This document shows positions 1 to 39,759 of a DNA stretch of 39,759 nt, in pieces. Numbering within the stretch: the stretch's first letter is position 1; every line of letters starts with the position of its first letter. The notes below the pieces were generated by a model, which saw only the letters and a list, made by a program, of their open reading frames with translations, made no database searches and was not told the DNA's origin. The stretch is from Alphaproteobacteria bacterium (GTDB taxonomy: Bacteria; Pseudomonadota; Alphaproteobacteria; JALCBB01), in assembly GCA_028066985.1 (NCBI GenBank), contig JALCBB010000003.1, positions 1 through 39,759 of the forward strand, read 5' to 3'. The translations under genes and the position numbers were made by a program.

Positions 1-157
1 TGCGGGCTAGCCCGCACCCATTAGTTGGCATCGCTCGCTTGAGCCAACATCGTGACTGTCTTAGTCAAACGCCCACTAATGCCAGGTGCTGACCTTCGTT
101 GTCTCTTAATTAAAAACTCCCACTAATGCCAGGGGCGGTTCGTCGTTGTCTCTTTAA
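1..157. repeat. Composite palindromic intergenic element, copy E1 (right arm only; the rest lies outside the window)
   Basis: GC hairpin GCGGGCTAGCCCGC at 2-15, then an arm ending CCCACTAATGCCAG, then outer motif CCTTCGTTGTCTCTTAATTAA at 93-113. A second partial module (CCCACTAATGCCAG + TTCGTCGTTGTCTCTTTAATTA) runs into the stop codon of the 158-721 gene. The same modules recur at 7 other sites. Confidence 0.85.
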
Positions 158-3204: not shown

Positions 3205-3960
3205 TTGCGGCTGACGGCGATGCCTGACCTGTTGCTGCTGCTGCTTTGCGTTCCGATTTTTTTGTTGAGCGGACTCGTCAAAGGCACGGTCGGCATGGGA
3301 CAGCCCGCGACGGCGATCGGTCTGCTGACATTTTTTGTTCCGCTGGACGAGGCGGTGGTGATTGTGCTGGTTCCCGGACTGATTACGAACGCGATTCAGA
3401 CCTTTAAAGGTCCGCCTGTGTGGGGGATGCTGCGACGGCTGCGGATTTTTTTCGTGATGAATGTTGTGTTCGCGTGGATTGGCGTGAAGATTCTGGCGAC
3501 GGGGGAGATCATGGCGTTGACGGCGGTGCTGGGGGTGCTGTTGATATTGCATGCGGGCGGGATGTGGGTGACGAACTGGCGGGTGATATCGCGGCGAGCG
3601 GAGCGGATTTTGCAGGTTCCGGTCGGATCGTTGAACGGACTTTTTGTGGGGATGACGGGCGCGACGCCGTTTCCGGGGGTTCCGTATTTGCAGTCGCTGG
3701 GGATGGAGCGCGAGGAGTTGATTCAGGCGATGGGGGCGATGTTTTTGATTGCGGCGATCACGCTTGCGTTTGGTTATGTGAGCGAGGGTTTGCTGACGCG
3801 GGAGGGGGTGACGGCGTCTGTGTTTGCGGTGGTTCCTTCTACGATTGGTTTGTACCTGGGGCAGCGGATACGGCATCGGCTGTCGCAGGAGGCGTTTCGG
3901 AAGACCTTTCTGGTGGTGTTGTTTGCGCTGGGTGTGTATATCACCGCGACAAACATTTAA
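3205..3960 (+). CDS. TauE/SafE-family (sulfite exporter-like) integral membrane protein
   Basis: About 250 aa and multi-TM, with a glycine-rich first helix (GLVKGTVGMGQP) typical of the family. The ORF opens with TTG at 3205; ATG at 3220 is a likelier start. Confidence 0.55.
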   Translation: MRLTAMPDLLLLLLCVPIFLLSGLVKGTVGMGQPATAIGLLTFFVPLDEAVVIVLVPGLITNAIQTFKGPPVWGMLRRLRIFFVMNVVFAWIGVKILATGEIMALTAVLGVLLILHAGGMWVTNWRVISRRAERILQVPVGSLNGLFVGMTGATPFPGVPYLQSLGMEREELIQAMGAMFLIAAITLAFGYVSEGLLTREGVTASVFAVVPSTIGLYLGQRIRHRLSQEAFRKTFLVVLFALGVYITATNI

Positions 3961-4230
3961 GAGACAAGCGAAGCGCGATAAATTAAAATTAAAAAGAAAA
4001 CAATTTATTTAATTGACACCATTAATTGTCTACTATTAAATTAAGAAAACAATTTATTTAATTTGACCTCTTAAATAGTCCAATTGCTTTTTAATTTTTT
4101 TTGCGGGCTAGCCCGCACCCATTAGTTGGCGTTGTTCGCTTGAGCGGCTATTGTGAATGTCTTAGTCAAACGCCCACTAATGCCAAGGGCTGTTCTTCGT
4201 CTATCTCTATTAATGTGCTACAATAATTAA
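3961..4230. repeat. Composite palindromic intergenic element, copy E2 (left arm reduced to the outer motif, full AT-rich core, full right arm)
   Basis: The TauE stop TAA is embedded in TTAAGAGACAAGCGAAG (outer motif, reverse orientation). Next comes the AT-rich core with two GAAAACAATTTATTTAATTGAC boxes, a T-run and hairpin GCGGGCTAGCCCGC (4103-4116). The arm ends CCCACTAATGCCAAG, followed by CTTCGTCTATCTCTATTAAT. Confidence 0.85.
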
Positions 4231-4830
4231 ATGAAAAGATTGACCCTCGCCATCACTATCGCCTTCGTCGTCACCATCACCGACGCCGGCGCCCAGGACA
4301 ACGAACTCCAGGAAGCCCTCAATCACATCAAAAACCAAAACTTCCACACCGCCCTCCAGCAACTCACACCACTCGCGCAAAACGGAAACCCCGCAGCACA
4401 ATACCACCTCGGCCGCATCCACCAACTCGGCTGGTCCGTCACCCCAAACATCACCACCGCCAAAATGTGGTTCCAACTCGCCGCCGAACAAAATCACCCC
4501 CTCGCCCAAATCGCCCTCGGCACCCTCCACGAAGGACTCTTCAATCACCCCCGGAACTACAGCGCCGCCGCCAACTGGTACCGCAAAGCCGCCGAACAGG
4601 GAAACCCCGAAGCACAAGCCAACCTCGCCGCGCTCTATAACCTCGGACGCGGCGTCCCCAAAAATAAAACCTACGCCTTCATGTGGTTCCACCTCGCCGC
4701 CCAGAAAAACAACGACCCGTTCTTCCGCGCCGAAAGAGATTCCGTCGCCAGAAGAATGTCGGTCGCCGCGATCTTCAGGGCGCGCAGACTCGCCGTCCGC
4801 TGCCGCGAACAAAACTACAAACAATGCTAA
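4231..4830 (+). CDS. Secreted Sel1-repeat (TPR-like) protein
   Basis: Signal peptide MKRLTLAITIAFVVTITDAGAQ. Repeated A-x-x-LG-x-x-Y/H-x-G-x-G-V-x-x-N/D-x-x-x-A-x-x-W-F/Y-x-x-AA-x-QG units. Confidence 0.8.
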   Translation: MKRLTLAITIAFVVTITDAGAQDNELQEALNHIKNQNFHTALQQLTPLAQNGNPAAQYHLGRIHQLGWSVTPNITTAKMWFQLAAEQNHPLAQIALGTLHEGLFNHPRNYSAAANWYRKAAEQGNPEAQANLAALYNLGRGVPKNKTYAFMWFHLAAQKNNDPFFRAERDSVARRMSVAAIFRARRLAVRCREQNYKQC

Positions 4831-4895
4831 AATAACAGGCGCAAACTCGGCGCCGTCAATGAAGCCCCCTGAACAAGCCTAGCCCCGACAAAACC

Positions 4896-6734
4896 ATGTG
4901 CGGAATCATCGCAATCTCGTCCGACAAACAGGTCGCCGCCGCGCTCCTCGCCGCGCTCAAGCAACTTGAATACCGCGGCTACGACTCCGCCGGACTCGCC
5001 ACCCTGGAAAAAAATAAAATCCACACCGCGCGCGCACAGGGCAAACTCGCCGCGCTCGAACAAAAACTCAAAACCCGCGCGCCGCCCGGCAGCACCGGCA
5101 TCGGACACACCCGATGGGCGACGCACGGACGGCCCTCCGAACAGAACGCGCACCCCGTCATCGCCGAGGTCGGCGGCAAAAGCGAAAACGCCGTCGCCGT
5201 CGTCCACAACGGCATCATTGAAAATCACGCGAAACTCAAACAGGAACTCGCGCGACAGAACCTCGCCTTTCACACCGACACCGACACCGAAGTCATCGCG
5301 CAACTCACGAGCCTCAACCTCGCCGCCGGACTGCCTCCGCTTGAAGCCGTCACCGAGACGCTCAAACGCCTTGAGGGCGCCTTCGCGCTCGCCTTTCTGT
5401 TTTCGCGCGACGACACTGTTATCGGCGCGCGGCGCGGCAGTCCGCTCGCCGTCGGACAGTCCGACAACACCCTCGCCCTCGGCTCCGATGTGCTTGCGCT
5501 CGCTCCGATAGCGCGGCAGATCGCGTATCTCGAGGAGGGCGATATCGTCGTTCTCTCCGGCGACACTCCGCGACTTTTCAACGCCGCCGGCGAGAACATT
5601 CAGCCGCAGTGGAAGGCGATTTCGCCGTCCAGTCTGCAGATCGGCAAGGGGCAGTATCAGCATTTTATGCAGAAGGAAATCTACGAGCAGCCCGCCGTCG
5701 TCGGCGAGACGCTTGACAGTTTTCTGGATCCGGCGCGATTGCGGGCTTCGTTTCCGGAGTTTCCGTTTGACACGGGTTCGCTGCGGAAGGTTCTTTTGTC
5801 CGCCTGCGGCACTGCTTACTATGCGACGGTCGCGGCGCAGTACTGGATAGAGGGTGTCGCCGGTCTTCCGTGTTCTGCGGAGATTGCGAGCGAGTTGCGT
5901 TATCGTGATCCGGCGCTTGGCGGCACTGACCTTGCGGTTTTCGTTTCGCAGTCCGGCGAGACGATGGACACTCTTGAGGCGGCGCGAATGGTCGCGCGCG
6001 CGGGCGTGTCGCGTCTTGCGGTGGTGAATCAGGGTGAAAGCACGCTGGCGCGGGAGTGCGAGATGTCGCTGCTGACGCGGGCGGGCGCCGAGATCGGCGT
6101 CGCATCTACGAAGGCGTTTACGACGCAACTTGCGCTGCTTGGCTGTTTCGCGCTGGAACTTGCGCGGGCGGGCGGCGTGTCGGACGAGCGGTTGCGCGCG
6201 TATGGTTCGGCGCTGATGGAGTTGCCGTCGCGTTTATACGAGGCGTTGACGCTTGACGAGCGTGTGTCGGCGATCGCGGCGGACATTTCGCGCGCGCGTC
6301 ATGCGTTGTATCTCGGACGCGGTGCGATGTATCCGCTTGCTTTGGAGGGCGCGTTGAAGTTGAAGGAGATCAGTTACATTCATGCCGAGGGGTATCCTGG
6401 CGGCGAGATGAAGCATGGTCCGCTTGCGCTTGTGGATGACGAGATGCCTGTGATTGTGCTGGCGCCGTCTGGCCCGTTGTTCGGGAAGATTGCTTCTAAC
6501 GCGGAGGAGGTGATGGCGCGCGGCGGGCGCGTGCTGTTAATTTCGGACGCGGAGGGACTGGCGAGTTTCGGCGGCGAGCCGGAGTGGGTTTTGGAGATGC
6601 CGTCTTGTGATGTATTTGTGCAGCCGATTTTGTATGCGTTGCCGGTGCAGTTGCTGGCGTACTACGCGGCGTGCCATCGCGGGACGGATGTGGATCAGCC
6701 TCGCAATCTGGCGAAATCCGTGACTGTAGAGTAG
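4896..6734 (+). CDS. glmS: Glutamine--fructose-6-phosphate aminotransferase (isomerizing)
   Basis: N-terminal MCGI nucleophile, two SIS domains (SQSGETMDT), canonical C-terminus ...NLAKSVTVE, 612 aa. Confidence 0.97.
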   Translation: MCGIIAISSDKQVAAALLAALKQLEYRGYDSAGLATLEKNKIHTARAQGKLAALEQKLKTRAPPGSTGIGHTRWATHGRPSEQNAHPVIAEVGGKSENAVAVVHNGIIENHAKLKQELARQNLAFHTDTDTEVIAQLTSLNLAAGLPPLEAVTETLKRLEGAFALAFLFSRDDTVIGARRGSPLAVGQSDNTLALGSDVLALAPIARQIAYLEEGDIVVLSGDTPRLFNAAGENIQPQWKAISPSSLQIGKGQYQHFMQKEIYEQPAVVGETLDSFLDPARLRASFPEFPFDTGSLRKVLLSACGTAYYATVAAQYWIEGVAGLPCSAEIASELRYRDPALGGTDLAVFVSQSGETMDTLEAARMVARAGVSRLAVVNQGESTLARECEMSLLTRAGAEIGVASTKAFTTQLALLGCFALELARAGGVSDERLRAYGSALMELPSRLYEALTLDERVSAIAADISRARHALYLGRGAMYPLALEGALKLKEISYIHAEGYPGGEMKHGPLALVDDEMPVIVLAPSGPLFGKIASNAEEVMARGGRVLLISDAEGLASFGGEPEWVLEMPSCDVFVQPILYALPVQLLAYYAACHRGTDVDQPRNLAKSVTVE

Positions 6735-7096
6735 CGAAGCACCACCCTTGGCATTAGTGAGAGTTAAATTTAGACATTAACAATAGCCGCTCAAGCGAAA
6801 CACACCCACTGATGCCCGCAGGCGCTGCCTGCAAAAAATTAAATTAAAAAGAAAATAATTTATTTAATTGACACCATTAATTGTCTATTAATGAAAAGGC
6901 AATTGATTTAATTGACCCCTTAAATGGTCAAATTAATTTTTTAATTTTTTTTGCGGGCTAGCCCGCACCCATTAGTTGGTGCTGTTCGCTTGAGCCAACA
7001 TTGTTAATGTCTAAATTTAACTCCCACTAATGCCAAATACCGCACTTCGTTTGTCTCTTAATTAAAGTGTCTACTAATGCTAGGGGCGGTTCGTCG
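6735..7096. repeat. Composite palindromic intergenic element, copy E3 (complete; between convergent glmS and glmU)
   Basis: Left arm: CTTGGCATTAGTGAGAGTTAAATTTAGACATTAACAAT..., hairpin GCAGGCGCTGCCTGC (6818-6832) and an A-run. AT-rich core at ~6839-6944. Right arm: T-run, hairpin GCGGGCTAGCCCGC (6953-6966), ...ATTGTTAATGTCTAAATTTAACTCCCACTAATGCCAA and outer motif CTTCGTTTGTCTCTTAATTAA (7045-7065). The outer 37 nt of the two arms are near-perfect reverse complements. Confidence 0.9.
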
Positions 7097-8479
7097 TTAC
7101 TTTTTTTTGCGGGAGCGGCGGGCCGCGGCGCCGTTTTCGGTCATTGAGGTCTCTGCGCGGGCGACAGCAAGCGCATCATCAGGAACATCATCCGTAATTA
7201 CACTCCCGGCGCCGATAAGCGCCCCTGCGCCAACACTCACCGGCGCAATCAATGCACTGTTAGAACCAATGAACGAACCCGCCCCTATATGCGTCTGATG
7301 TTTGCTGAAGCCGTCATAGTTGCAGGTCACCACTCCCGCGCCAATGTTCACATCGTCGCCGACAACACTGTCGCCAATATACGAAAAATGTCCCGCCCGA
7401 ACTCCATCACCCAAACGCGACGCCTTCACCTCCGCAAAATTACCAACACGCACACCCTCGCCAAGCACCGTACCAGGACGCAAACGCGCAAAGGGTCCCA
7501 CAGAAGCACCCCGCCCGACACGCACTCCCTCTAAATGCGAAAAACTCCGAATGACCGCGCCGCCCTCAACCTCAACCCCAGCCCCAAACCACACCCAAGG
7601 CTCAATACGACAATCCTCCCCCAGACAAGTGTCATGCGACAAAAACACAAACCCCGGCGCCACCAATCCAGCACCGCCCGCCATCGCCGCCGCCCGAAGC
7701 CGGCACTGAATGATCTCCTCCGCCACAGCATGATCCGCGCGCGTGTTCACACCCTGTCCGTCTTCGGCATCACACTCAACAATGCGGGCGCGGCCGCCGT
7801 CGCGCGCCGCGTGAATAATGATGTCCGTCAGAAGAAACTCGCCCTGCCGATTGTCGTCTTTCAGCATAGGGAGATAGCGCGAAAGGTGTCCGACGGTCGT
7901 CACCATCACTCCGCTCCACACAAGCGGAGAAACCGCGTCGCCGTCACGGAGATTCTTTAACTCAACAATGCGCGCGGCATACTCGGAGTCGCTCCCGTCA
8001 AGAACAAAACGGCCATACGCGGCAGGGTCGTCAGGTCTGAAGGCAAGCCACGCCGAGTCCGCATCGCCCCGCATCTCGCGCAACTTCACAAGCGTCTCGC
8101 CGCGGACACACGGAGCATCGCCCACAATCAGAAAAACATCGTCGCCAGGCGCGAGAGTATTCTCAAGTTCAGAAAGCGCGCGGCGGGCGGCGTGTCCCGT
8201 GCCAAGCGGCTCGTCCTGCACGACACTGTTAAAGGTGTCGGCGTCAACAACATCAGAAAGGGCGGCGGCGACACCTTCGCCTTCTCCGTCGGGTGAAATC
8301 ACGGCGAGAACACGCGCCGGCTCAAGAGCAAGCGCGGCGCGGGCAGTCCAGGCGACGACAGGAAGTCCGGCGATGTCAAGCAGAAGTTTGGAGCGGGACG
8401 CGCGGATGCGCCGGCTGCGTCCCGCCGCAAGCAGGACAACACCGGCGCGCGGCAGTGACTCGGCAGAAGAAACAGACAT
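7097..8479 (-). CDS. glmU: Bifunctional GlcNAc-1-P uridyltransferase / GlcN-1-P acetyltransferase
   Basis: N-terminal LLAAGRSRR nucleotidyltransferase motif and C-terminal left-handed beta-helix hexapeptide repeats. Start moved to ATG 8479 (MSVSSAE...) because the 41 codons upstream in the ORF track look spurious. Confidence 0.93.
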   Translation of the reverse strand: MSVSSAESLPRAGVVLLAAGRSRRIRASRSKLLLDIAGLPVVAWTARAALALEPARVLAVISPDGEGEGVAAALSDVVDADTFNSVVQDEPLGTGHAARRALSELENTLAPGDDVFLIVGDAPCVRGETLVKLREMRGDADSAWLAFRPDDPAAYGRFVLDGSDSEYAARIVELKNLRDGDAVSPLVWSGVMVTTVGHLSRYLPMLKDDNRQGEFLLTDIIIHAARDGGRARIVECDAEDGQGVNTRADHAVAEEIIQCRLRAAAMAGGAGLVAPGFVFLSHDTCLGEDCRIEPWVWFGAGVEVEGGAVIRSFSHLEGVRVGRGASVGPFARLRPGTVLGEGVRVGNFAEVKASRLGDGVRAGHFSYIGDSVVGDDVNIGAGVVTCNYDGFSKHQTHIGAGSFIGSNSALIAPVSVGAGALIGAGSVITDDVPDDALAVARAETSMTENGAAARRSRKKK

Positions 8480-8550: not shown

Positions 8551-11500
8551 ATGGGGTATAATCATGACACAGCGCAAACAGCCAAGATGCCGAAGTTTCC
8601 AAACCCTTTCAGAAGGCGGCGCGTCCGCGAAGACGCCGCGCCCGGACGCGTCCGCGGAGGCGTCCGCGGGCGCGGGCGCGCGCGCGGGCGGGCGCGGAGT
8701 TCGGTCTATGTGCTGCGCGCGGCGCTTGAGGTGGTCGCGGTGCTGGCGGTGATCGCGGGCGTGCTGCTCGGCGCGCTCGTGTGGTGGCTTTACGAAAACC
8801 CGCAGGAGTTCACGCTGCTCGGCGGCGGCGTTGAGCGCGCGCTCGGCGCCGCGCTCGGCGGACAGGAGGCGAGCGTTGAGTCGGTGAGCGTGTCGTGGCG
8901 GCGCACGCCGAGTCCGACTTTGTATATTTTCGCGAGCGGCGTTTCGCTGTCGGACGCGGACGGCGCGCTCATCGGGCGGCTTGACGGCGTTGACGGCGTG
9001 CTGTCGCTGCAGGATTTGTTTCGCGGACGCGTTTATGTGTCGGAACTCGGGTTGCGCGGACTGGTTTTGCCGGTGCGTGTCGGACGCGGCACGCTCGGTT
9101 TCGGCGGCGCGGAGAATGATAATGCTTTGACCGGCACGGCAACAGAAACGGCGCCCGAATTTTCTGCCGAAACGGAGACGGAAACGGCGCCTTCATTGTC
9201 TACCGAGACGACAACAGGCACGACACCTTCATTGTCGTCTGAATCGTCAACGACAACGGAAACGGCGGCGCCTTCATTGTCGTCCGAGACGACACCTTCA
9301 TCGTCTACAAGCACGACGACAGAAACGGCGCCTTCATTGTCGTCTGAATCGTCAACAACAACGGAGACGGAAACGGCGGCGCCTTCATTGTCGTCCGAAT
9401 TATCGTCGGAAACGGCGGCGCCTTCATTGTCCCCTTCGCCGTCGCCTGAATCAGTGTCCGAAAATGTGTGGCGCGACAGGTTGCTGTCGCTGTTCCTGTC
9501 GCCGCTCGCCGAAAGCGACCGCGTGGAGGCTTTGCCCGCCCGCGTGTCGCTGCAGGAAATGCGCCTCCTCTTCCTGGACGAGTCCGGCGCCCGCCTCGGC
9601 GCGCCCCTCAACGGCGACATCCTCCTCACCCGCGCAATGGACGACCTCGCCCTGGAAGCAGTCTTCCAGAATCCGGTGGTGTCAGACGACCTGTCATCAT
9701 CCGTGTCGCTGTCCGCGGCCTATCGCCTCGGCGGCGATCCGACAAAAACACTGAAATTTAATTTTTCGGGATTCCGTCCCGATGTGTGGCACGACCTCGC
9801 CGCGTCTCTCTGGACAGCATACTCCGGCAACGCCGGCGCCCTCAACTTCGCGTCAGATGTCGCGCTTCCCCTCGCCGGCGCCGTTGACCTGGAACTGGAA
9901 GCAGGCGCGGCGCGGCAAGTGTCGCTGTCGCTGTCGGGCAGTCCGGGCGAAGTGCGGCTCGGCGCGCTCTACAACGAGCCGCTGCCCGTGCTCGCCTTCG
10001 GAATGTCGCTCAACCTCGCGCGCGAAAACAAAACATGGCAGGGACAACTCGCCGTCACCGACCTCTTCCTCGGCGGCGCGGACGACACCGGCGAACTGCC
10101 CGTCATCGGACTCAACGCGGAACTCTCGGCAAGACCAGGAACATCACTCTCGTTCGCGGGAACACTGAGCGGCGAAGACATGTCCGTGGAATGGCTGACA
10201 CGACTCTGGCCGCGCGCGTATCTGTCGCCGCCGCGCACATGGATTGAAGAACGCGTCTCGCGCGGCACGCTCTCCGACATTAAAAGCGAAATGGCGCTGT
10301 CGTGGTTCGCGCGGTCGCCGTCAACAGGATCGTCTTACGCGACGCTGGACAATCTTGAAGTGGATTTCTCCTTCGCCGATATGGATGTCCTCTACCTTGA
10401 CGACTTTCCGGCGGCGACAAACGCCCGCGGACGCGCGCGCTGGCGGCAGTCAGGAATGGAGTTCCTCATTGACGAAGCGACAAGCGCCGACCTCGCCCTC
10501 GCAGGGTCGGTGCGCCTGGAGCCGAACAACGGCAACTGGCGCGAAACCTGGCTCGCGATTGAAACAAAAACCGAGTCGACACTCGCGGCAGGGCTGGCGT
10601 TCCTGGACATTGACGCGCTCGGCTTTCTGTCGCGCTACGGATTCAACAGCGCCGGCGTCACCGGAACCGCGGACGGCGCGCTGCAAGTGCGTCTGCCGAT
10701 CCGCGGCGATGTCGTCGCCGACGATGTTGAACTCTCGGGCGACTTCGTCCTGCGCGACTACCGATGGCCCGGCATCGTCTCGGGAATGGACCTGAGCGGC
10801 GGCGAGGCGCGCGTCTCGTACGGCGGCGGCTCTCTGCGCGCCGAGGGCGACGCCCTGCTCGGCGCCGACACCGAAGTGCGCTTCCTCTGGAACCGCGAAC
10901 TGCGCGCGGACGGCGCGACACACCTGGAAGCCGAAACGCCCGCGCTGCGAGTCTCAGACCTGCGGCGGTTCGGACTGCCGCCGTCCGACAGAATCGCGGG
11001 AAGCATCGGCGGCGCGATTGACCTCGTCTCGCGCGGCGACACCGTGGAGGCCGCGCTTGACCTCGACCTGCGCGATGTGTCGCTGTCGCTGCCCGAAATC
11101 GCATGGAGCAAACCGCGCGGCGCGATGGCGAGCGCGCGGCTGCGTACCGAGTCGCGCGGCAGCGTGATGCGAAGTCTGCGCGTGGAGTCGTTCGGCGGCA
11201 TCAGCGTCCTTGAGGAGGAAGAGGCGGGGTCGGCGCGGAAATTTCTGATTGACGGCGGCGAGATGGCGTTCACGGCGGCGGGCGAGTTGTCGTCCGCGAA
11301 CTTCGCCGCGATTGACCTCGGACGCACGAAGGTCGTCGGGCTGTCGCTCGCGCGCGACGACGACGGCGTCTACGGCGTGCGCGCCGAACGCGTGGAAGAA
11401 TTACGCATCGGACGCGGCGACTCGGGCGCGCGGCTGTCGCTGGCGTCGGGCGGCAACGGCGACGACAGCGAGACGGCGGAAACAGAAACAGAAACGGCGC

Positions 11501-12438: not shown

Positions 12439-12799
12439 GGACACTTTAATTAAAAGACAAACGAAGCACTGCCCTTGGCATTAGTGAGAGTTAAATTCAG
12501 ACATTCACGATGTTGGCTCAAGCGAACCGCACCCACTGCCGCCCGCAGGCGCTGCCTGCAAAAAAAATTAAATTAAGAAGAAAACAATTTATTTAATTAA
12601 CACCATTAATTGTCTATGTTAACAAGAGAAGAATTTATTTAATTGACCCCTTAAATAGTCAATAAATTATTATTTATTTTTTTTGCGGGCTAGCCCGCAC
12701 CCATCTGCTGGCATCGTTCGCTTGAGCCGGCATCGTGAATGTCTTAGTCAAACTCCCGCTAATGCCAGAAGCCGCCCTTTGTTGTCTCTTTTTTAATTA
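12439..12799. repeat. Composite palindromic intergenic element, copy E4 (complete)
   Basis: TTAATTAAAAGACAAACGAAG follows 9 nt after the asmA-like stop. Then the left arm, hairpin GCAGGCGCTGCCTGC (12545-12559), A-run, AT-rich core, T-run and hairpin GCGGGCTAGCCCGC (12685-12698). The right arm ends CTAATGCCAG, followed by CTTTGTTGTCTCTTTTTTAATTA. Confidence 0.9.
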
Positions 12800-12847
12800 T
12801 CTCCCCGCCGCTTGCGTCCGGCAACGGCGCGTAGTATTCTCAATGCC

Positions 12848-12952
12848 AGCATCTACTCAGTTTATTTGTGGGAAAGGTCCGTCGGGCCTTCCACCAAATA
12901 AAACACCCTAACGGGGAATAAGTGGAATCTTTCCCACTTCTGGGTAGATGCT
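12848..12952 (+). other. Candidate structured RNA or 5' leader (three-way junction) upstream of the Sel1 lipoprotein gene
   Basis: A 13-bp closing helix AGCATCTACTCAG (12848-12860) / CTGGGTAGATGCT (12940-12952, one G-U). It encloses a ~20-bp imperfect hairpin (12861-12902, GTCG loop) and a 6-bp hairpin AAGTGG..CCACTT (12920-12939). No known RNA family recognised. Confidence 0.3.
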
Positions 12953-13013
12953 AAAGACCCGGCATCTCATATGTCGGCGTCTCCATCAGACCGGAAGTGG
13001 AGGAGGTTCCGCC

Positions 13014-13838
13014 GTGAATATTCCAGTCCTGAAAACAGTTTTTGTCCTCGCCATCGCCCTGCTGTCGTCCTGCGCCGCGCCCTCCGCCGACTTCGAAAAA
13101 GCGAAAAACGCCCTCGCCGAAAAAGACTACGCAACCGCCGCCCGCGAACTTCAGTCCCTCGCCGATCAGGGAAACGCCGAAGCCCGGTCACTTCTGGGAA
13201 CGCTGTATCATGACGGAACGGGCGTTTCCCAAAATTACGAAATCGCCGCGCAACTGCACCGCAGCGCCGCCGAACAGGGAATCGTCGAAGCCATCTACAA
13301 CCTCGGCAACGCCTACGAATACGGACTGGGCGTCCCGCAAAACTGGGAAGAAGCGCTGAGGCTGTACCGGCGCGCCGCCGAGCAGGGGTTCCCCGCCGCG
13401 CAATTCAATCTGGGAACAGCATACGCGAAAGGAGAGGGTGTCCCCTGGAACCCCGAAACGGCGGCGGAATGGTATCGTCGCGCCGCAGAACAGGGACACG
13501 CCAAGGCTCAGCAAAATCTGGGACTGGCATACGCGACAGGAGAAGGCGTTCCTCAAGATCGCGAAATGGCGGCGGAGTGGTTTCGTCGCGCCGCAGAGCA
13601 GGGACTTGTCGAAGCCCAGGCAAGTCTGGGGGGCGCGTATTGTTTCGGCGAGGGCGTCATTCAGAATTACATCTACGCGCATATGTGGCTGAATCTTGCC
13701 GCGTCAAGAGGAAGCGAGGCGGCGGCCGAAAAAAGAGACATCATCACGGACTTGATGACTCCCGAACAGATCGCGGAGGCGCAGAGACTCGCCGCCGAGT
13801 GTCTGAAAAACGACTACAAGGGGTGTTCGCTCCCATAA
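13014..13838 (+). CDS. Sel1-repeat lipoprotein
   Basis: GTG 13014 lies 7 nt after GGAGGAGG. Lipobox LLSSC. Six or more Sel1 repeats (AxxLGxxYxxGxGVxQNxxxAxxWYRRAAEQG). The ORF-track start at 12948 was rejected. Confidence 0.8.
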   Translation: MNIPVLKTVFVLAIALLSSCAAPSADFEKAKNALAEKDYATAARELQSLADQGNAEARSLLGTLYHDGTGVSQNYEIAAQLHRSAAEQGIVEAIYNLGNAYEYGLGVPQNWEEALRLYRRAAEQGFPAAQFNLGTAYAKGEGVPWNPETAAEWYRRAAEQGHAKAQQNLGLAYATGEGVPQDREMAAEWFRRAAEQGLVEAQASLGGAYCFGEGVIQNYIYAHMWLNLAASRGSEAAAEKRDIITDLMTPEQIAEAQRLAAECLKNDYKGCSLP

Positions 13839-14243
13839 TTAAGGCTTCGCCTCTGGACTTGCCATGGCACGATCTTTGGCATTAGTGGGAGTTTGATTTA
13901 GACATTCACGATGCTGGCTCAAGCGAGCGGCACCAACTGATGGGTGCGGGCTAGCCCGCAAAAAATTAAATTAAAAAGAAATTAATTTAATTTTAATTGA
14001 CCCCATTAATTGTCTAATTAATAATTAACAGAATAAATTTCTTTTTAACACATTAATTGTCTATTAATGAAAGGGCAATTGATTTAATTGGCCTCTTAAA
14101 TGGTCAAATTAATTTTTTATTTTTTTTTGCAGGCAGCGCCTGCGGGCATCAGTGGGTGCTGCTCGCTTGAGCGGCTACATTAAGAGTCTAAAATTAAGTC
14201 TCACTAATGCCAAAGATCGCACTTCGTCTGTCTTTAGAATTGG
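13839..14243. repeat. Composite palindromic intergenic element, copy E5 (complete, inverted relative to E3/E4; between convergent sel1 and tyrS)
   Basis: Here the left arm carries GCGGGCTAGCCCGC (13946-13959) and the right arm carries GCAGGCAGCGCCTGC (14129-14143). The AT-rich core has CATTAATTGTCTA boxes. The tyrS stop lies in the terminal TTAATTAA-like motif. Confidence 0.9.
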
Positions 14244-15479
14244 TTAATTAATTTTTAACAAGACATGCTTCTTGCGTCCCAGAGAAACCTGCGCCACACC
14301 ATCATCACCGAAAATTTCGCGCGACAACACATACCCAATATCAGAAATTTTCTCGCCGTTAACACGCACTCCCCCCCCGCGCACCGCACGCCGCGCCTCG
14401 CTGTTAGAAATCGCCAAATCCGCCTCAACTAACGCCGCCACCAGCGTCAAACCCTCCCCAACCTCATAAACCGCAAGACCAGCATCCACCCCTCCCTCAA
14501 CAAAAATTCGCTCCGCCACCTCGCGCGCACCCCGCGCCGCATCTCCCCCATGACACAACGCCGTCACATTGTCCGCAAGCACAATCTTCGCATGATTGCG
14601 CTCCCGCCCCCTCAACGCCGCAAGCGACTCAACCTCGCTCATCGGCAACTCCGTAAACAAACTCAAAAAACGCCCCAAATCCTCATCACTCACATTGCGC
14701 CAATACTGCCAAAAATCATTCGGCGACACCTTCCCGCCATCAAGCCACACCGCGCCCGCAGCCGTCTTGCCCATCTTCGCGCCGCCCGATGTCGTCACAA
14801 GCGGCACCGTCAAACCATGCAAACGCGCGCCCCCCAGACGCCGCGACAACTCCACTCCGCAAACAATGTTGCCCCACTGATCCGATCCCCCAACCTGCAG
14901 ACGACAACCCTCGCGCACAGACAACTGCACAAAATCCCACGCCTGCAACACCATGTAATTAAACTCAAGAAATGTCAGCGGCTGCTCGCGCTCCAGACGC
15001 GAACGCACCGAGTCAAACGTCAGCATCCGATTAATCGTGAAATGACCGCCAACCTCGCGCAAAAACGGAATGTACGAAAGCGAATCCAGCCAGTCCGCAT
15101 TGTTGCACATCACCGCAGACGCGGCGCCGTCGCCGTCAAAGTCCAGATAACGCGAAAAAATCGCGCCGAGCGAGGCGGCATTGCGCGCAATGTCTCCCTC
15201 GGAAAGAATCCGGCGAACCTCGTCCTTGCCCGACGGATCGCCAATCTTAGAAGTGCCGCCGCCCAGCAAAACAATCGGACGATGTCCGCCCCTCTGAATC
15301 CACCGCAACGCCATGATCGTTATCAATGAACCCGCATGAAGCGAGTCCGCCGTCGCGTCATAACCGATGTAAGTGGAAAAAACCTCGTCGTCAAACAAAC
15401 GCCGCAACGCCTCGCGGTCGGTGCACTGATGGATGAACCCGCGCTCCGCAAGCACATCAACCGGATTAAATCCGCCCAT
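14244..15479 (-). CDS. tyrS: Tyrosine--tRNA ligase
   Basis: Class I motifs (DSLHAGSL for HIGH, KMGKT for KMSKS) and a C-terminal S4-like domain, 411 aa. Confidence 0.95.
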   Translation of the reverse strand: MGGFNPVDVLAERGFIHQCTDREALRRLFDDEVFSTYIGYDATADSLHAGSLITIMALRWIQRGGHRPIVLLGGGTSKIGDPSGKDEVRRILSEGDIARNAASLGAIFSRYLDFDGDGAASAVMCNNADWLDSLSYIPFLREVGGHFTINRMLTFDSVRSRLEREQPLTFLEFNYMVLQAWDFVQLSVREGCRLQVGGSDQWGNIVCGVELSRRLGGARLHGLTVPLVTTSGGAKMGKTAAGAVWLDGGKVSPNDFWQYWRNVSDEDLGRFLSLFTELPMSEVESLAALRGRERNHAKIVLADNVTALCHGGDAARGAREVAERIFVEGGVDAGLAVYEVGEGLTLVAALVEADLAISNSEARRAVRGGGVRVNGEKISDIGYVLSREIFGDDGVAQVSLGRKKHVLLKIN

Positions 15480-17542: not shown

Positions 17543-18022
17543 GTCTTCGCGGCGGAAACATTGACAATGACCTTGACGACGACAACGGCGACACCTTCAT
17601 CGTCAACTTCGACAGCGACGGTGACGACAAATTCACCGTCAATGGCAACGACAGCGACGGCACCTTCACTGTCAATGTCAACGGCGACGGTGACGACAAC
17701 GACGGCACCTTCACCGTCAACGGCGACAACAACGGCGCCTTCGTTGTCTACGGCGACAGAAACGGCGGCGCCTTCACTGTCAATGGCGACAACAACGGCG
17801 GCGCCTTCACTGTCAATGGCGACAACAACGGCGCCTTCGTTGTCTACGGCGACGGCGGCGCCTTCACTGTCAATGCCGACAACAACGGCGCCTTCGTTGT
17901 CTACGGCGACGGCGGCACCTTCACTGTCAATGGCGACAACAACGGCGGCAAATTCAACGGCAATGTCGGCGCCGTTTTCGTCAATAACTCCGACGGCAAC
18001 CGCGGCGCCGTTTTCGTCGACA
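17543..18022 (+). repeat. Degenerate tandem array (~11 units of 27-45 bp) built on CCTTC(A/G)(C/T)(C/T)GTC(A/T)A(T/C)GG-CGAC(AAC)n-GGCG
   Basis: Units include GCCTTCACTGTCAATGGCGACAACAACGGCG and GCCTTCGTTGTCTACGGCGAC (e.g. 17738-17749, 17771-, 17804-, 17834-, 17861-, 17891-, 17918-). All six frames are open across it. Confidence 0.9.
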
Positions 18023-19132: not shown

Positions 19133-19190
19133 TTGGGGCGGGGCGGAGATGGGCGGTTTCTGCGGACTTGAGGGGGGTTGCAAAGGAACG

Positions 19191-19313
19191 GCAAGGGTGG
19201 CGAGCGTATTTAGTTCCCTGCCCCTGCTTTTGTTCCGCGGGACGCATTGACGGCGCCGCGTTTTTTGTCGGGCGCGCGGACGCAGAAATACAACTTTAGG
19301 TTGTATTGCCCGA
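19191..19313. repeat. Outer inverted repeat, left copy (IR-oL) of the RM island; includes a pseudo-copy of the last 7 codons plus stop of the ABC ATPase gene
   Basis: Reverse complement of 30720-30842 with 5 mismatches in 123 nt (hand alignment). Positions 19191-19214 read GGC AAG GGT GGC GAG CGT ATT TAG, against GGC GAG GGT GGC GAG CGT ATT TAG at the true gene end. Confidence 0.9.
19287..19307 (-). terminator. Candidate terminator hairpin for res (AATACAAC-5nt-GTTGTATT), mirrored copy of 30726-30746
   Basis: 8-bp AT-rich stem with a short U-tract on the transcribed strand. Lies downstream of the res stop, within IR-oL. Confidence 0.3.
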
Positions 19314-24359: not shown

Positions 24360-24463
24360 AGAAAACGACACGCTTACGCCTGGCAGACGGCTGGCGCCGT
24401 CTGCGGGCTGTCTCCGCCATTCCCGGGGGGAACGGCGGAGACAGCCGAGGCGTGTCGTTTTCT
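24360..24463 (-). other. 104-nt Y-shaped structured insertion upstream of mod, absent from the mirrored Type ISP upstream region
   Basis: Perfect 14-bp closing helix (24360-24373 / 24450-24463). It encloses a 9-bp hairpin (24383-24391 / 24396-24404, 4-nt loop) and a 13-bp hairpin (24406-24418 / 24434-24446) whose loop is itself palindromic (TTCCC..GGGAA). Confidence 0.7.
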
Positions 24464-24718
24464 CCCGTCAGCAAACTTTGTCCCCGTTAATAAGAAAACA
24501 ATTTATTTAATTGACCCCTTAAATAGTCAATAAATTATTATTTATTTTTTGCGGGCTAGCCCGCACCCGTCTGCCGGCATCGCTCGCTTGAGCCAACACC
24601 GTGAATGTCTAAGTCAAACGCCCACTAATGCCAGCGGCGAGCCGCCGCAGGCATAAGTTGGCGCGATTCGCTTGAGCCAACACCGTGAATGTCTCAGTCA
24701 AACGCCCACTAATGCCAG
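24461..24718. repeat. Inner inverted repeat, left copy (IR-iL) = half composite element E6 (half AT-rich core + hairpin + two tandem arm modules)
   Basis: Reverse complement of 25431-25688 with 1 mismatch in 258 nt (hand alignment: GTCTCAGTC vs GTCTAAGTC). Contains GAAAACAATTTATTTAATTGACCCC and GCGGGCTAGCCCGC, plus a duplicated module ...GAGCCAACACCGTGAATGTCT(A/C)AGTCAAACGCCCACTAATGCCAG. Weaker similarity extends to ~24773. Confidence 0.92.
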
Positions 24719-24796
24719 AAGCCGCCCTTCGCTTGTCTCCTAAAGAGACGAAAAAGGCGGCGCCGTTAATCCAGCCACCGAAACAAAGCACCTCCC

Positions 24797-25150: not shown

Positions 25151-25164
25151 GGCTCCTCCAGAAG

Positions 25165-25238
25165 TAGCGGGGGAGGGACTCGAACCCCCGACACGCGGAT
25201 TATGATCCCGCTGCTCTAACCAGCTGAGCTACCCCGCC
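25165..25238 (-). tRNA. tRNA with CAU anticodon (elongator Met, or Ile2 if lysidine-modified); no encoded CCA
   Basis: Hand-folded cloverleaf: acceptor GGCGGGG/CCCCGCT (G1-U72), D arm GCTC-AGCTGGTTA-GAGC, anticodon stem GCGGG/TCCGC with loop A-U-CAU-A-A, variable loop GTGTC, and T arm GGGGG-TTCGAGT-CCCTC. Confidence 0.85.
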
Positions 25239-25284: not shown

Positions 25285-25430
25285 GTGAGGTCGGAGGGGC
25301 GCTGATTTCGCCCTGCGGGAGCCATTAACGGCGCCGCCTTCCGGGGTTGGAGACGGCGGAGGCGGCGCCGGCCCAGGGGCTTCATTGACGGCGCCGCCTT
25401 TCCGCCCCTTAAACAGACGAAGAACAGCCC

Positions 25431-25688
25431 CTGGCATTAGTGGGCGTTTGACTTAGACATTCACGGTGTTGGCTCAAGCGAATCGCGCCAACTTATGCCT
25501 GCGGCGGCTCGCCGCTGGCATTAGTGGGCGTTTGACTTAGACATTCACGGTGTTGGCTCAAGCGAGCGATGCCGGCAGACGGGTGCGGGCTAGCCCGCAA
25601 AAAATAAATAATAATTTATTGACTATTTAAGGGGTCAATTAAATAAATTGTTTTCTTATTAACGGGGACAAAGTTTGCTGACGGGAGA
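25431..25688. repeat. Inner inverted repeat, right copy (IR-iR) = half composite element E7
   Basis: Mirror image of 24461-24718 (see that entry). Weaker similarity extends left to ~25381. Confidence 0.92.
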
Positions 25689-30719: not shown

Positions 30720-30842
30720 TCGGGCAATACAACCTAAAGTTGTATTTCCGCGACCGCCCGCCCGTCAAAAAACGCGGCGCCGTCAATGCGTCCCGCGGAA
30801 CAAAAGCAGGGGCAGGGAACTAAATACGCTCGCCACCCTCGC
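30720..30842. repeat. Outer inverted repeat, right copy (IR-oR); overlaps the genuine 3' end of the ABC ATPase gene
   Basis: Mirror image of 19191-19313. Contains the hairpin AATACAAC..GTTGTATT and the CATTGACGGCGCCGCG box (reverse complement, 30773-30788). Confidence 0.9.
30726..30746 (+). terminator. Candidate terminator hairpin for the Type ISP gene
   Basis: AATACAAC-CTAAA-GTTGTATT followed by TCC, starting 20 nt after the stop codon. Confidence 0.3.
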
Positions 30843-31815
30843 CAAAATAATACGCGCGCGCAGGATCAAACGATAAGCATACCTCGCCCGCAGGCGGAAC
30901 CTCATGCTGTCCGAAAAGACGCAGAGTCACAGTATGGCCGGAAACCGTCAGAATCACATTCGTGTCGCCGCCCAGATGCTCAATATGCTCAACCACACCA
31001 CGCAAATGTCCGTCGTCAGACAGGAAAAAATCCTCGGGACGCACTCCCAAAACACGCGGATCACCCTCGCTCAATAAACCCGCAGGCAAGAAATTCATCG
31101 CCGGCGAACCCAAGAAACCCGCCACAAACCGATTCACAGGATCATTGTACAACTCCATCGGAGTCCCGACCTGCTCGACACGACCCTCGCGCAAAACAAC
31201 AATCTTGTCCGCAAGCGTCATCGCCTCCGTCTGGTCGTGCGTGACATAAATCATCGCCGTCTCCAATTGACGGTGCAAATTCGCAATCTCAAGACGCGTG
31301 TTCATCCGCAGCGCCGCGTCCAGATTGGACAACGGCTCGTCAAACAGAAAAAGACGCGGCTTGCGGACTATCGCGCGTCCGATCGCCACGCGCTGGCGCT
31401 GTCCGCCCGACAACTCGGACGGATAGCGGTCAAGATATTCGCCCAGATTCAGCATCCGGCTCGCCTCCGCCACGCGAGACGCGATCACTCCCTTCGGCTG
31501 CCGCTCCTGCTTCAGCGCCAGCGACATATTGCCCCGAACACTCAAATGCGGATACAACGCATAACTCTGAAACACCATCGCCACTCCGCGCCGCGACGGC
31601 GGCACCGAATTCACCACCTCGCCGCCGATGCGAATCTCGCCCGATGTCGCGTCCTCAAGGCCGGCGATCACGCAAAGCAATGTGGACTTGCCGCAGCCCG
31701 ACGGACCCACAAAAACCACGAACTCGCCCTCGTCAATCTCAAGAGTGATGTCCGTCAGCACCTCCACAGCGCCGAAAGACTTGTACACCCCCGACAAAGA
31801 CGCCGCCGCGGTCAT
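30820..31815 (-). CDS. Sugar ABC transporter ATP-binding protein (MalK/UgpC family)
   Basis: Walker A GPSGCGKST, signature LSGGQRQRV, Walker B LFLFDEPLS and a C-terminal TOBE-like regulatory domain. Confidence 0.9.
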   Translation of the reverse strand: MTAAASLSGVYKSFGAVEVLTDITLEIDEGEFVVFVGPSGCGKSTLLCVIAGLEDATSGEIRIGGEVVNSVPPSRRGVAMVFQSYALYPHLSVRGNMSLALKQERQPKGVIASRVAEASRMLNLGEYLDRYPSELSGGQRQRVAIGRAIVRKPRLFLFDEPLSNLDAALRMNTRLEIANLHRQLETAMIYVTHDQTEAMTLADKIVVLREGRVEQVGTPMELYNDPVNRFVAGFLGSPAMNFLPAGLLSEGDPRVLGVRPEDFFLSDDGHLRGVVEHIEHLGGDTNVILTVSGHTVTLRLFGQHEVPPAGEVCLSFDPARAYYFGEGGERI

Positions 31816-38403: not shown

Positions 38404-39518
38404 GCGCGCGCACGGTCATCTACGGCGGCGGACGCATCTTTGACGGCGAGACGCTGCACGAGCAGAGCGCGGCGCGTTTTGAAAACGGAATGTTGTCGGC
38501 GATTTTGCCTGAGGGCGCGGCGGGTGTCGGTGTCGGCGACGGCGACTATGTGAATCTGCGCGGCGACATTCTGAGCGCGGGCTTTGTTGACCTTCAGGTC
38601 AACGGCGGCGGCGGAGTGATGTTCGGCGATGCTCCGAGCGTTGAGACGCTGGAGCGTGTCGCGGCGGCGCATCGCGGTCTCGGCGTGGCGAAGTTTCTGC
38701 CGACGCTGACGAGCGACATTCCCGAGAAGACGCGGCTGGCGGTGTCGGCGGTGCGCGAGGCGGTCGCGGCGGGAGTCACGGGCGTCGGCGGGCTGCATCT
38801 TGAGGGACCGCATTTGTCGGTTGAGAAGCGCGGGGCGCACGGCGCGGAGTTTATTCGTCCGATGACGGACGCGGATCTGGCGCTGCTGTTGTCGGCGGCG
38901 GCGGAGTTGCCGATGTTGATGGTGACGGTCGCGCCGGAGGGTGTTTCGCGCGAGCAGGTGGGGGCGTTGTCGGCGGCGGGGGCGGTGGTTTCGCTGGGGC
39001 ATACGGCGGCGGACTTTGCGACTTGCATGTCGTATGTGGAGGCGGGCGCGCGGTGTGTGACGCATTTATTTAACGCGATGAGTTTGCTGGGGTCGCGCGA
39101 GCCTGGTTTGGTCGGGGCGGCGTTGTGTTCGGGGCGTTTGTCGGCGGGTTTGATAGGGGATGGTGTGCATGTGCATCCGGAGGTTGTGGGGGCGGCGTGG
39201 CGTGCGAAGCGGGGTCCGGGGGGAATATTTCTGGTGAGTGATGCGATGGCGGTGGCGGGGAGTGATTTGACTGAGTTTGATTTTGGGGGGCGGACGGTCA
39301 AGCGTGGCGGGGGGCGTTTGACTTTGGCGGATGGGACGCTGGCGGGTGCGGATGTGGATTTGGGGGATTCGGTGCGGTTTTTGGCGGAGGAGGTTGGGGT
39401 GGATTTGTGCGAGGCTTTACGGGCGGTGACGGTGGTGCCGGCGGCTTTTGCGCCTGATGTTCTGGGCGGACGGCTGGCTCGTTTGGACGAAGTGGCTGTA
39501 TTAAAGGCGCCGAATTAG
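38400..39518 (+). CDS. nagA: N-acetylglucosamine-6-phosphate deacetylase
   Basis: GFVDLQVNGGGG, HLEGPHLS and THLFNAM motifs of the amidohydrolase NagA family. GTG start. Confidence 0.9.
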   Translation: MSARTVIYGGGRIFDGETLHEQSAARFENGMLSAILPEGAAGVGVGDGDYVNLRGDILSAGFVDLQVNGGGGVMFGDAPSVETLERVAAAHRGLGVAKFLPTLTSDIPEKTRLAVSAVREAVAAGVTGVGGLHLEGPHLSVEKRGAHGAEFIRPMTDADLALLLSAAAELPMLMVTVAPEGVSREQVGALSAAGAVVSLGHTAADFATCMSYVEAGARCVTHLFNAMSLLGSREPGLVGAALCSGRLSAGLIGDGVHVHPEVVGAAWRAKRGPGGIFLVSDAMAVAGSDLTEFDFGGRTVKRGGGRLTLADGTLAGADVDLGDSVRFLAEEVGVDLCEALRAVTVVPAAFAPDVLGGRLARLDEVAVLKAPN

Positions 39519-39759
39519 TCAACAGACAAAGAACCGCCCTTGGCATTAGTAAGACTTTGACCAAGACATTCACGATGTTGGCTCAAGCGAGCGATGCCAA
39601 CTGATGCCCGCAGGCGCTGCCTGCAAAAAAATTAAATTAAAAAGGAATTAATTTATTTAATTGACCCCATTAATTGTCTTATTAATAATTAACAGAATGA
39701 ATCTCTTTTTAACACATTAATTGTCTATTATTTAATTAATGAAAAACAATTTATTTAAT
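39519..39759. repeat. Composite palindromic intergenic element, copy E8 (left arm + AT-rich core; truncated by window end)
   Basis: The nagA stop TAG is followed directly by TCAACAGACAAAGAAC (outer motif, reverse orientation). Then CTTGGCATTAGTAAG..., hairpin GCAGGCGCTGCCTGC (39610-39624), an A-run, and a core with CATTAATTGTCT boxes and AACAATTTATTTAAT. Confidence 0.85.

Follow-up and report, generated by a model that had tools for sequence, protein, structure and literature searches.

The stretch analysed here, called the window throughout (39,759 nucleotides; contig JALCBB010000003.1 of assembly GCA_028066985.1), comes from the chromosome of an uncultured alphaproteobacterium (2.27 Mb, 60% GC; ENA ERZ21781341 ctg64743c); the same region is carried by two metagenome-assembled genomes (MAGs) at NCBI, GCA_028067195.1 and GCA_028066975.1. 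The genes considered below include glmS, glmU, tyrS and mnmA, a TauE gene, a YhdP-like gene, two Sel1 genes (Sel1_199 and Sel1_274), a tRNA-Met gene and two restriction-modification blocks. Among the housekeeping genes lie palindromic, non-coding, intergenic repeat elements of 270-600 bp, which occupy 6.2% of the window; all eight sites (E1-E8) that the initial annotation had listed were found in place.

Sequence of this lineage was read over ~90 kb in total (the window, its flanks, L018-L020 and further loci), and syntenic or related regions of relatives (L009, L010, L015, L016 and L017) over ~80 kb. Loci L018/L019 and L020 were found through Sel1 paralogues, in a search whose matches were otherwise mostly repeat-driven, while a paralogue search with the ABC ATPase led to other taxa only; L018 and L020 belong to the same genome as the window or to a sister strain or species. 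The closest relatives available are distant, with glmS 62-65% identical and an ABC ATPase of one MAG 78% identical.

Size and distribution of the family

We built a strict arm pattern from the invariant columns of the arm alignment. The pattern, TGGCATTAG-N14-AGAC-N13-GCTCAAGCGA, had 13 matches in the window, while 0.00 were expected from 100 dinucleotide-preserving shuffles. An nhmmer profile of the arm recovered the same 13 full arms of ~95 nt along with one partial outer unit in E1; a second partial outer unit, in E3, was read directly off the sequence. Most arms form inverted pairs that flank AT-rich cores.

The copies are not confined to the region of the window. The flanks beyond it hold the complete forms of E1 and E8 (in L001 and L011, where the arm profile found further copies) as well as a divergent element, E9, within an ABC-transporter operon. 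Four arms were observed in L018/L019, beside radical-SAM and Sel1 genes, and 13 arm matches, 11 of them near full length, in the 11.8 kb of L020, where the neighbours are ccmAB, cobST and the RNase P RNA gene rnpB. Contigs of short-read assemblies (L002-L004, L006, L012 and L014) terminate in or just past an element, as expected for a high-copy repeat.

In the sampled regions of the relatives no arm was detected at E <= 1e-3, with chance-level matches of 2-3 bits at E <= 10, and these regions are almost free of AT-rich islands. A match to an already described repeat was sought as well. At the Rfam gathering threshold the window yielded tRNA-Met alone, and the best Rfam match of a full element was a chance-level PreQ1 hit (E = 0.77); matches of one L020 element to plant miRNA precursors reflect merely its long hairpin. 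A blastn search with a full element against 72,556 PLSDB plasmids, a collection that presumably includes many rhizobial replicons, gave no match. No family member was seen in IMG/VR viral contigs (pattern scan) or in JGI metagenomes, where two unrelated chance matches to the pattern occurred. Full-text searches of publications, which covered the topic, the motif sequences and the accession numbers, likewise turned up no described family that matches. The family is real, multi-copy, dispersed and absent from the sampled regions of the relatives; it is apparently undescribed.

Architecture of the half-element

The basic unit of the family is a half-element. From the outside in it reads (C)TTTAATTAA, GAGACARACGAAG, about nine variable bases, an arm body of ~70 nt with the invariant blocks GGCATTAG, AGAC and GCTCAAGCGA, a GC hairpin and an A-run of 5-9; innermost lies a core module with an ATTGAC-N10-GTC site. 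The outer end is made of GAGACARACGAAG and TTAATTAA; the terminal consensus (C)TTTAATTAAGAGACARACGAAG is found at both ends of an element, and similarity between copies ceases at the octamer. All six TTAATTAA octamers of the window lie within elements, four at ends and two in cores. Alignments confirmed the plan first proposed for these elements, in which outer motif, arm, GC hairpin, A-run and AT-rich core are followed by a mirror half.

The GC hairpin, with a 6-bp stem and a loop of 2-3 nt, stands between ACTNATGNNN and the A-run. Two subtypes had been described; we found at least five variants (GCGGGC/GCCCGC, GCAGGC/GCCTGC, GCGGCG/CGCCGC, GCGGGC-GCC-GCCCGC and GGCGGC/GCCGCC). In the alignment 95.8% of the stem cells are paired and compensatory double changes occur in four of the six pairs; the covariation score, 0.298 as compared with 0.072 in shuffles, was reached by none of 500 shuffles. 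The hairpin is therefore conserved as a structure. Single arms had no consistent fold relative to shuffles (z from -0.3 to -3.3, with structures differing among copies), and RNAalifold on the arms recovered the GC hairpin alone. At the level of a whole element the picture is one of strong folding: a single strand of E3 forms one long imperfect palindrome (-89.6 kcal/mol, z = -13.2).

Two functional assignments were tried and rejected. One reverse frame of the arm is open, and the arms have no codon periodicity that would go with a small coding open reading frame (ORF). As for intrinsic (bidirectional) terminators, the A-run comes after and the T-run before the hairpin on both strands; no T-run follows either GC hairpin in any reading direction, so the hairpins are not intrinsic terminators. 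The sole terminator-like flag in the elements was a weak core palindrome, TTGACC-N8-GGTCAA, with a T-rich tail on the plus strand only, while ordinary terminator-like sequences (hairpin and T6) are present elsewhere in the window.

Half-elements are combined in several ways. The commonest arrangement is the inverted pair, which yields a palindrome of 270-600 bp. Solitary half-elements were seen at E2 and at L020 1190-1375 and 7590-7810, and tandem half-elements with a mini-core and a period of ~160 nt at E8 and L020 2380-2870. E6 and E7 form a mirror pair that encloses a 142-aa ORF and tRNA-Met; they are inverted repeats of each other over 276 nt, with 97% complementarity. Tandem outer units occur at E1, E3, E8 and in L020. 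The proposal that arms can be deleted or duplicated stands for the deletion in E2; in E1 and E3 it is an outer unit of ~47 nt, rather than a full arm, that is duplicated, and E6/E7 are mirror half-elements.

The AT-rich core

The core was previously noted as nearly free of G and C. It is AT-rich indeed, yet not featureless: between two and four modules of ~45 bp (a, b and c) follow one another in direct orientation along its 110-190 bp, and every module carries AATTTATTTAATTGAC and a palindromic site, ATTGAC-N10-GTC. With up to one mismatch this site has 26 matches against 8.4 expected, and all exact matches fall in cores. The core is polar, as judged from its direct modules and from the direction of the 15-mer ATTTATTTAATTGAC, which is the same in E1-E6 and E8 and reversed in E7 alone (7/8 in the window and flanks); in the unrelated locus L020 the 15-mer is co-directed at 5/5 sites. 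Core content is highly variable, with different cores or none in E9 and L018.

Module c reads AGTCAATAAATTA in E4, E6, E8 and L020, and this match is missing from E3 and E5. The consensus of IHF is WATCAANNNNTTR, from which we take module c to differ by one mismatch. A CtrA box (TTAA-N7-TTAA) was rejected for the core sites by inspection, the TTAA spacing being N8-N9.

An asymmetric element occurring in both orientations had been suggested, with E5 inverted relative to E3 and E4. We observed instead that arms, hairpins and cores are shuffled independently, while nearly all cores are co-oriented. In E5 the hairpin and arm types are swapped as compared with E3 and E4, the core polarity is the same, and as far as the T-run the right half of the core shares 94% identity with its counterpart in E3; E5 is therefore a mosaic and not an inverted copy. 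Junctions in such mosaics sit exactly at the boundary of hairpin and A-run.

Gene ends, stop codons and promoters

Three features go beyond what the initial annotation had reported: the association with stop codons and, described in the next section, the siting of copies at synteny breakpoints and the gene conversion among them. Every element in the window and flanks except E7, the mirror of E6, contacts at least one gene 3' end, and convergent gene pairs flank E3, E5 and E8. The stop codon lies inside or directly against the terminal octamer in the 187-aa gene, TauE, Sel1_274, tyrS and the amidohydrolase-like gene, as well as in ccmB (L020) and the radical-SAM gene (L018). The nine genes with a 3' end at an element use TAA (six) and TAG (three) and never TGA, while the remaining 16 genes of the window use TGA in 10 cases, TAG in four and TAA in two (Fisher p = 0.0099 for TAA). 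In the relatives, the stop codon is TGA in both orthologues of the 187-aa gene and in one glmU.

E3 starts right behind the glmS stop codon, at position 6735, a place that in many bacteria serves Tn7-like transposons as attTn7. Tn7 genes are absent here, and the location of E3 at an attTn7-type position is probably a coincidence of gene-end targeting.

Genes that start beside an element have promoter-like sequences of their own at or just beyond its outer end. On the E4 side, TTGCGT-N17-TAnnCT precedes the leader of Sel1_274. The promoter-like sequence of Sel1_199 ends 5 nt before the ATG, which, judged from sequence, suggests a leaderless mRNA. In L020 the RNase P RNA gene (7719-7860; 282 bits) starts 28 nt past a half-element, and a near-consensus TTGACG-N16-TATAAT for rnpB sits in place of the outer motif, an arrangement suggesting that an element end may have been turned into a -35 box. 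Hybrid promoters of this kind are known from the ends of insertion sequences (IS) and miniature inverted-repeat transposable elements (MITEs).

Given these promoters at the outer ends, a promoter role for the core is unnecessary. The core as a promoter of downstream genes was not supported by our scan either: promoter-like matches were not significantly enriched (7 against 4.0 +/- 1.9).

Synteny breakpoints and gene conversion

Gene order was compared by tblastn of 14 proteins (13 from the window and SBP5 from the L001 flank) against three relatives, in which the 12 shared genes have the same order. Relative to them, glmS has been turned around where it stands, as has TauE; a Sel1 gene has been inserted between E4 and E5 and another beside E2, and two genes (NTP-transferase and phosphomannomutase) are missing at the position of E1. 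Due to the inversion of glmS the former glmU-glmS tandem is now convergent around E3; as this tandem is widespread in bacteria, we took the arrangement in the relatives as ancestral. All of E1-E5 are situated on breakpoints, which make up 7 of the 13 junctions (hypergeometric estimate 0.016). The orthologous junctions in L009, L010 and L015, genomes as distant as stated above, are free of elements.

Near-clonal independent assemblies were identical to the window over 9-16.7 kb except for two patches, both in elements. As compared with L001 (HiFi) and L002 (short-read), 16.7 kb are identical save one patch of 14 columns in the core of E3; the sole difference from L005 is a patch at the arm/core junction of E4. 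The E4 allele of L005 is 96% identical to E3 over 83 nt, a part of the E3 allele of L001 is 100% identical to E6/E7 over 30 nt, and the E3 allele of the window shares variants with E5. That each variant patch matches another copy is a signature of gene conversion between dispersed copies. For E3 an assembly error is unlikely, since each of its alleles is common to independent assemblies; the E4 patch was seen in L005 alone.

Larger units are shared as well. The segment from the core of E4 through the leader and Sel1_274 to the core of E5 (12619-14022) recurs at L020 1199-2383 with 77-80% DNA identity in a different gene context, and its Sel1 copy is shorter by about two Sel1 repeats. A third Sel1 paralogue, in L018 (56% amino-acid identity), is also bracketed by arms. 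The counterpart in L020 indicates that a duplication or a move can take in elements along with the DNA that separates them.

A structured leader occupies positions 12845-12975 of the window, between E4 and Sel1_274, and has a paralogue at L020 1400-1560. On the plus strand, 12881-12971 matched sRNA-Xcc1 (RF02221) below threshold: its 35.2 bits (E = 7.8e-5) fall short of the gathering score, which is 53. The Xcc1 match of the L020 leader did not reach E <= 0.1; by eye, a long stem with compensatory differences is apparent. In the relatives the place of E4-Sel1-E5 is taken by a different solution, a convergent tyrS/YhdP spacer (L009 4146-4307, L010 4068-4279) made of tandem ~34-nt repeats of the last tyrS codons (CGCAAGTTTATCTTGCGGCTTAAATAA).

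Coordinates of the elements and neighbouring repeats

Table 1. Elements of the window, their parts and the features adjoining them; positions are those of the window unless a locus is named.
Feature	Position	Strand	Composition or remark
E1	1-157		Right half, cut by the window start: hairpin B 2-15, arm body, outer motif with TTAATTAA 106-113
E1, extra 47-nt outer unit	114-157		Found by the arm profile
Stop codon of the 187-aa gene (beside E1)	158-160	minus	Inside TAATTA
E1, complete form	L001 4810-5265		
E2	3958-4230		TauE stop codon TAA 3958-3960 fused to outer motif GAGACAAGCGAAG 3961-3973; left arm and hairpin deleted
E2, further parts			Core 3975-4102; hairpin B 4103-4116; right arm; outer motif 4195-4207
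E2, promoter-like TTCGTC-N17-TGnTACAAT	4197-4225		5 nt ahead of the Sel1_199 ATG at 4231
E3	6735-7096		Fills the whole gap between the stop codons of glmS (6732-6734) and glmU (7097-7099, minus)
E3, left side			Left arm 6749-6817; hairpin A GCAGGCGCTGCCTGC 6818-6832
E3, core	6833-6952		ATTGAC-N10-GTC sites at 6867 and 6911
E3, right side			Hairpin B GCGGGCTAGCCCGC 6953-6966; right arm 6967-7044; outer motif 7045-7057; TTAATTAA 7058-7065
E3, extra partial outer unit	7066-7096		
E4	12439-12799		TTAATTAA 12446-12453; outer motif 12454-12466; left arm; hairpin A 12545-12559
E4, remainder			Core 12560-12684; hairpin B 12685-12698; right arm; outer motif with TTAATTA ending at 12799
E5	13836-14251		Sel1_274 stop codon inside TAATTAA 13836-13842; left arm; hairpin B 13946-13959
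E5, core	13960-14128		Long; polarity as in E3, E4 and E8
E5, right side			Hairpin A 14129-14143; right arm; outer motif; TTAATTAA 14244-14251 containing the tyrS stop codon
E6	24461-24745	plus	Half-element: core module c 24480-24550; hairpin B 24551-24564; inner arm
E6, outer part			Hairpin C 24634-24648; outer arm; outer motif 24727-24739
tRNA-Met enclosed by E6/E7	25164-25238	minus	
E7	25404-25688	minus	Mirror of E6; sole core of reverse polarity
E8	39513-39759		Truncated by the window end; left arm and some of the core remain
Stop codon TAG of the amidohydrolase-like gene (beside E8)	39516-39518		Inside AATTAG of the terminal motif
E8, complete form	L011 11120-11745		Two further right arms and three tandem outer units

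Around the E6/E7 pair we observed a second inverted repeat, 124 nt long and 96% complementary (19190-19313 and 30720-30843), one copy of which follows mnmA while the other reaches into the ABC ATPase gene at its 3' end. It contains a terminator-like sequence (hairpin and T6) and a second small hairpin (TACAAC...GTTGTA). This pair, nearly concentric with E6/E7, encloses two restriction-modification blocks of ~5 kb (type III res and mod; type ISP) in mirror-image slots. The neighbourhood is rich in defence genes: besides the type III and type ISP restriction systems, a DarT-Macro pair (a toxin-antitoxin/defence pair of the DarTG type) lies directly beside E8, at L011 11750-13474.

A short motif, (C)ATTRACGGCGCCGC(C/G)TTT, occurs by the outer ends of E6/E7 (24753-24786, 25325-25345 and 25384-25402), in both 124-nt repeats (19246-19262 and 30770-30803) and between Sel1_199 and glmS (4843-4876). 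GC-rich irregular tandem repeats with spacing of 12-57 nt (e.g. GGCGACAACAACGGCGGCGCCTTCACTGTCAAT) are shared between 17564-17967 and 9145-9460. The former stretch lies in the 5' part of a long mnmA ORF in which the Pfam domain begins at residue 168, the mnmA of the relatives being 388-408 aa; we place the latter in the 5' part of the YhdP-like gene.

Origin and role of the elements

We consider it reasonably likely that the family is a lineage-specific, non-coding, non-autonomous mosaic repeat of the MITE/REPIN-BIME kind, which settles at gene ends and drives local recombination; the earlier notion of a naturally evolving, modular MITE/BIME-like family thus remains the best reading. Copies would be spread by an enzyme supplied in trans, one that would probably recognise the structure-conserved GC hairpin and the invariant arm motifs, with insertion at TA-rich targets such as TTAA or TAA. 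In a genome of 60% GC, insertions would survive mainly at gene ends, where the terminal octamer could restore a stop codon. Once in place, the long (~100-nt) inverted arms of neighbouring elements may recombine homologously and invert the gene or genes between them, while homologous recombination or gene conversion could homogenise or shuffle the modules. Tandem outer units could have arisen at the element's own TTAATTAA end, by successive insertions or by unequal exchange. Effects on expression would then be by-products: the ends would supply stop codons in several frames, some outer ends would supply outward hybrid promoters, and transcription through an element would give an RNA duplex of ~100 bp.

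Several observations do not sit easily with a mobile repeat of this kind. Among the called genes of the sampled loci (Pfam, ~90 kb), the window included, there was no transposase or recombinase domain, as the initial annotation had remarked for the elements. A target-site duplication of TA, TAA, TTAA or 8 bp is not separable from the palindromic TTAATTAA, and no direct repeat extends beyond it. Within one element the left arm resembles the right one (61-83% identity) no more closely than arms paired at random resemble each other (mean 76%), so that the copies are not simple copy-and-paste products of one master. Co-orientation of the cores is unexpected under random transposition. These four points, that is the mobilising enzyme that was not found, the ambiguity of the duplication, the mosaic arms and the co-oriented cores, are the main weaknesses of the reading; in addition, presence/absence polymorphism of elements was not seen among the available near-identical strains, and the breakpoint between TauE and the 123-aa gene is devoid of an element.

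The elements could alternatively be host-domesticated intergenic punctuation modules of the BIME/RIP kind, an idea that is compatible with a MITE-like origin and that would have their spread and upkeep driven by function. Sites in the core would bind a putative nucleoid or topology protein (IHF-, GapR-, MucR- or gyrase-like), and at the 3' ends of mRNAs the arms would pair into an RNA duplex that either protects or is cut by RNase III. The contact of all elements but E7 with a gene 3' end, the location of four elements, E3, E5 and E8 among them, between convergent genes, the over-representation of ATTGAC-N10-GTC (26 against 8.4), the nearness of module c to the IHF consensus, the co-orientation of cores along the chromosome and the strong fold of a whole element (z = -13) all agree with it. 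However, the sampled regions of the relatives manage without elements, core content varies (E9, L018) and the IHF-like match is missing in E3 and E5, and the GC hairpins are not intrinsic terminators in a window that has ordinary terminator-like sequences elsewhere; we therefore regard punctuation as a possible but distinctly less probable driving force. The thought that the arms are structured small-RNA genes transcribed outward from the core is harder still to maintain: a conserved module of ~95 nt with invariant blocks and a covarying hairpin would suit such genes, but the inconsistent arm folds (z -0.3 to -3.3), the recovery of the GC hairpin alone by RNAalifold, the lack of a terminator at the outer end and of any Rfam match make it very improbable.

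Recombination itself could be the primary process. If the polar cores were sites for a recombinase or a structure-specific nuclease encoded elsewhere, the arm-bounded segments (housekeeping genes, Sel1 with its leader, restriction-modification blocks) would be invertible, excisable and re-insertable, and the whole reduced alphaproteobacterial chromosome would have an organisation like that of pdif modules or integrons. Chromosome-wide site-specific shuffling of cassettes would explain the single genes inverted in place between elements; the unit of half-element, promoter, structured leader, Sel1 gene and left arm found in two contexts at 77-80% DNA identity; the make-up of E4-Sel1-E5 (outer arms of type A, inner arms of type B, direct cores), which resembles a single ancestral element that received a cassette; the two ~5-kb restriction-modification blocks in mirror-image slots bounded by the 124-nt repeat and E6/E7; and mosaic junctions lying exactly at the hairpin/A-run boundary. 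Homologous recombination between inverted or direct arms of ~100 nt explains the same observations, though, and glmS, tyrS and uvrC, being housekeeping genes, are unlikely cassettes; moreover, the ~90 kb sampled contain no recombinase gene, and no excision, inversion or empty-site variant was seen among four to six independent assemblies. We rate this scenario as improbable. More limited flipping, in which the inverted arms would turn a promoter-bearing core around as in invertons, appears hardly tenable. Polar cores with TTGACA/TTGACC boxes after A/T tracts are flanked by long inverted repeats, and E3 and E5 differ as if the core had been flipped relative to the arms; but the core orientation of E2-E5 is constant in all assemblies compared (at least three besides the window for each element), the promoter-like matches show no significant enrichment (7 against 4.0 +/- 1.9), the downstream genes have promoters of their own, half of the elements have a core directed at the 3' end of a convergent gene, and no invertase gene is nearby.

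If the MITE/REPIN-BIME-like reading is true, a small chromosome of 2.27 Mb has recently undergone massive colonisation by a large composite repeat: an ancient glmU-glmS operon was split, single genes were flipped in place, and essential genes have come to end on stop codons that belong to a repeat's terminal octamer. The variant patches, set in otherwise identical strains, also make a clear natural case of gene conversion among dispersed repeats. In practical terms, the family explains why short-read assemblies of the organism are fragmented, and the arm profile could serve as a sensitive lineage marker. The hairpin beside the A-run and the co-oriented cores provide handles toward a partner transposase or a host-factor function.

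Comparison with known repeats

The elements have much in common with the REP, BIME and REPIN sequences of gamma- and betaproteobacteria, which are mobilised by RAYT (PMC3337134, PMC3116915). Both are extragenic and found mostly at gene 3' ends; both combine inverted palindromic units with a spacer, are mosaics of few modules and exist as singlets, doublets and tandem arrays; both are non-coding, with a density of the hundreds-per-genome type and with hairpins whose structure is conserved over sequence. The protein-binding (IHF) spacer of RIP/BIME-1 is a possible analogue of the AT-rich core. On the other hand, a REP is 20-40 nt long, while the unit described here has ~95 nt and an outer end of 47 nt, and it has no GTAG/CTAC tetranucleotide; its spacer is a polar core of 110-190 bp made of 45-bp modules, and its TTAATTAA ends overlap stop codons. 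The host is alphaproteobacterial, and no RAYT (Y1 transposase) was present among the called genes of ~90 kb.

Correia elements (CREE/NEMIS) of Neisseria are 100-155 bp long, with terminal inverted repeats of 26 bp, a defined TA duplication and a central IHF site. With these the present elements share a palindromic MITE-like form, location at gene ends, proposed TA-containing targets, outward promoter potential at the termini and a long RNA hairpin that would form on co-transcription, and the central IHF site is another possible analogue of the core. They differ in length (270-600 bp), in having arms of ~130 nt, internal GC hairpins and a modular core, and they show no sequence similarity to Correia elements. 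RIME elements are ~110 bp long. RIME1 and RIME2 of Rhizobium and other alphaproteobacterial intergenic repeats are likewise mosaic, palindromic, intergenic and devoid of a transposase; our elements are larger. IS-derived MITEs also have long terminal inverted repeats, small size, no ORF and many copies, are missing from the compared regions of relatives and show nested or tandem insertions at their own ends. Here, in contrast, there is no known parent IS, the arms of one copy are not co-inherited, half-elements and tandem arrays are common and the cores are co-oriented.

As a defining REP feature is lacking and no sequence is shared with anything searched, we did not file the elements under a named family. 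By analogy, they would work most like REPIN/BIME and Correia-type MITEs, from which they differ in size and in several further respects: GC hairpins separate arm from core, the core is polar and iterated, the TTAATTAA ends lie on stop codons, and the half-element serves as building block.

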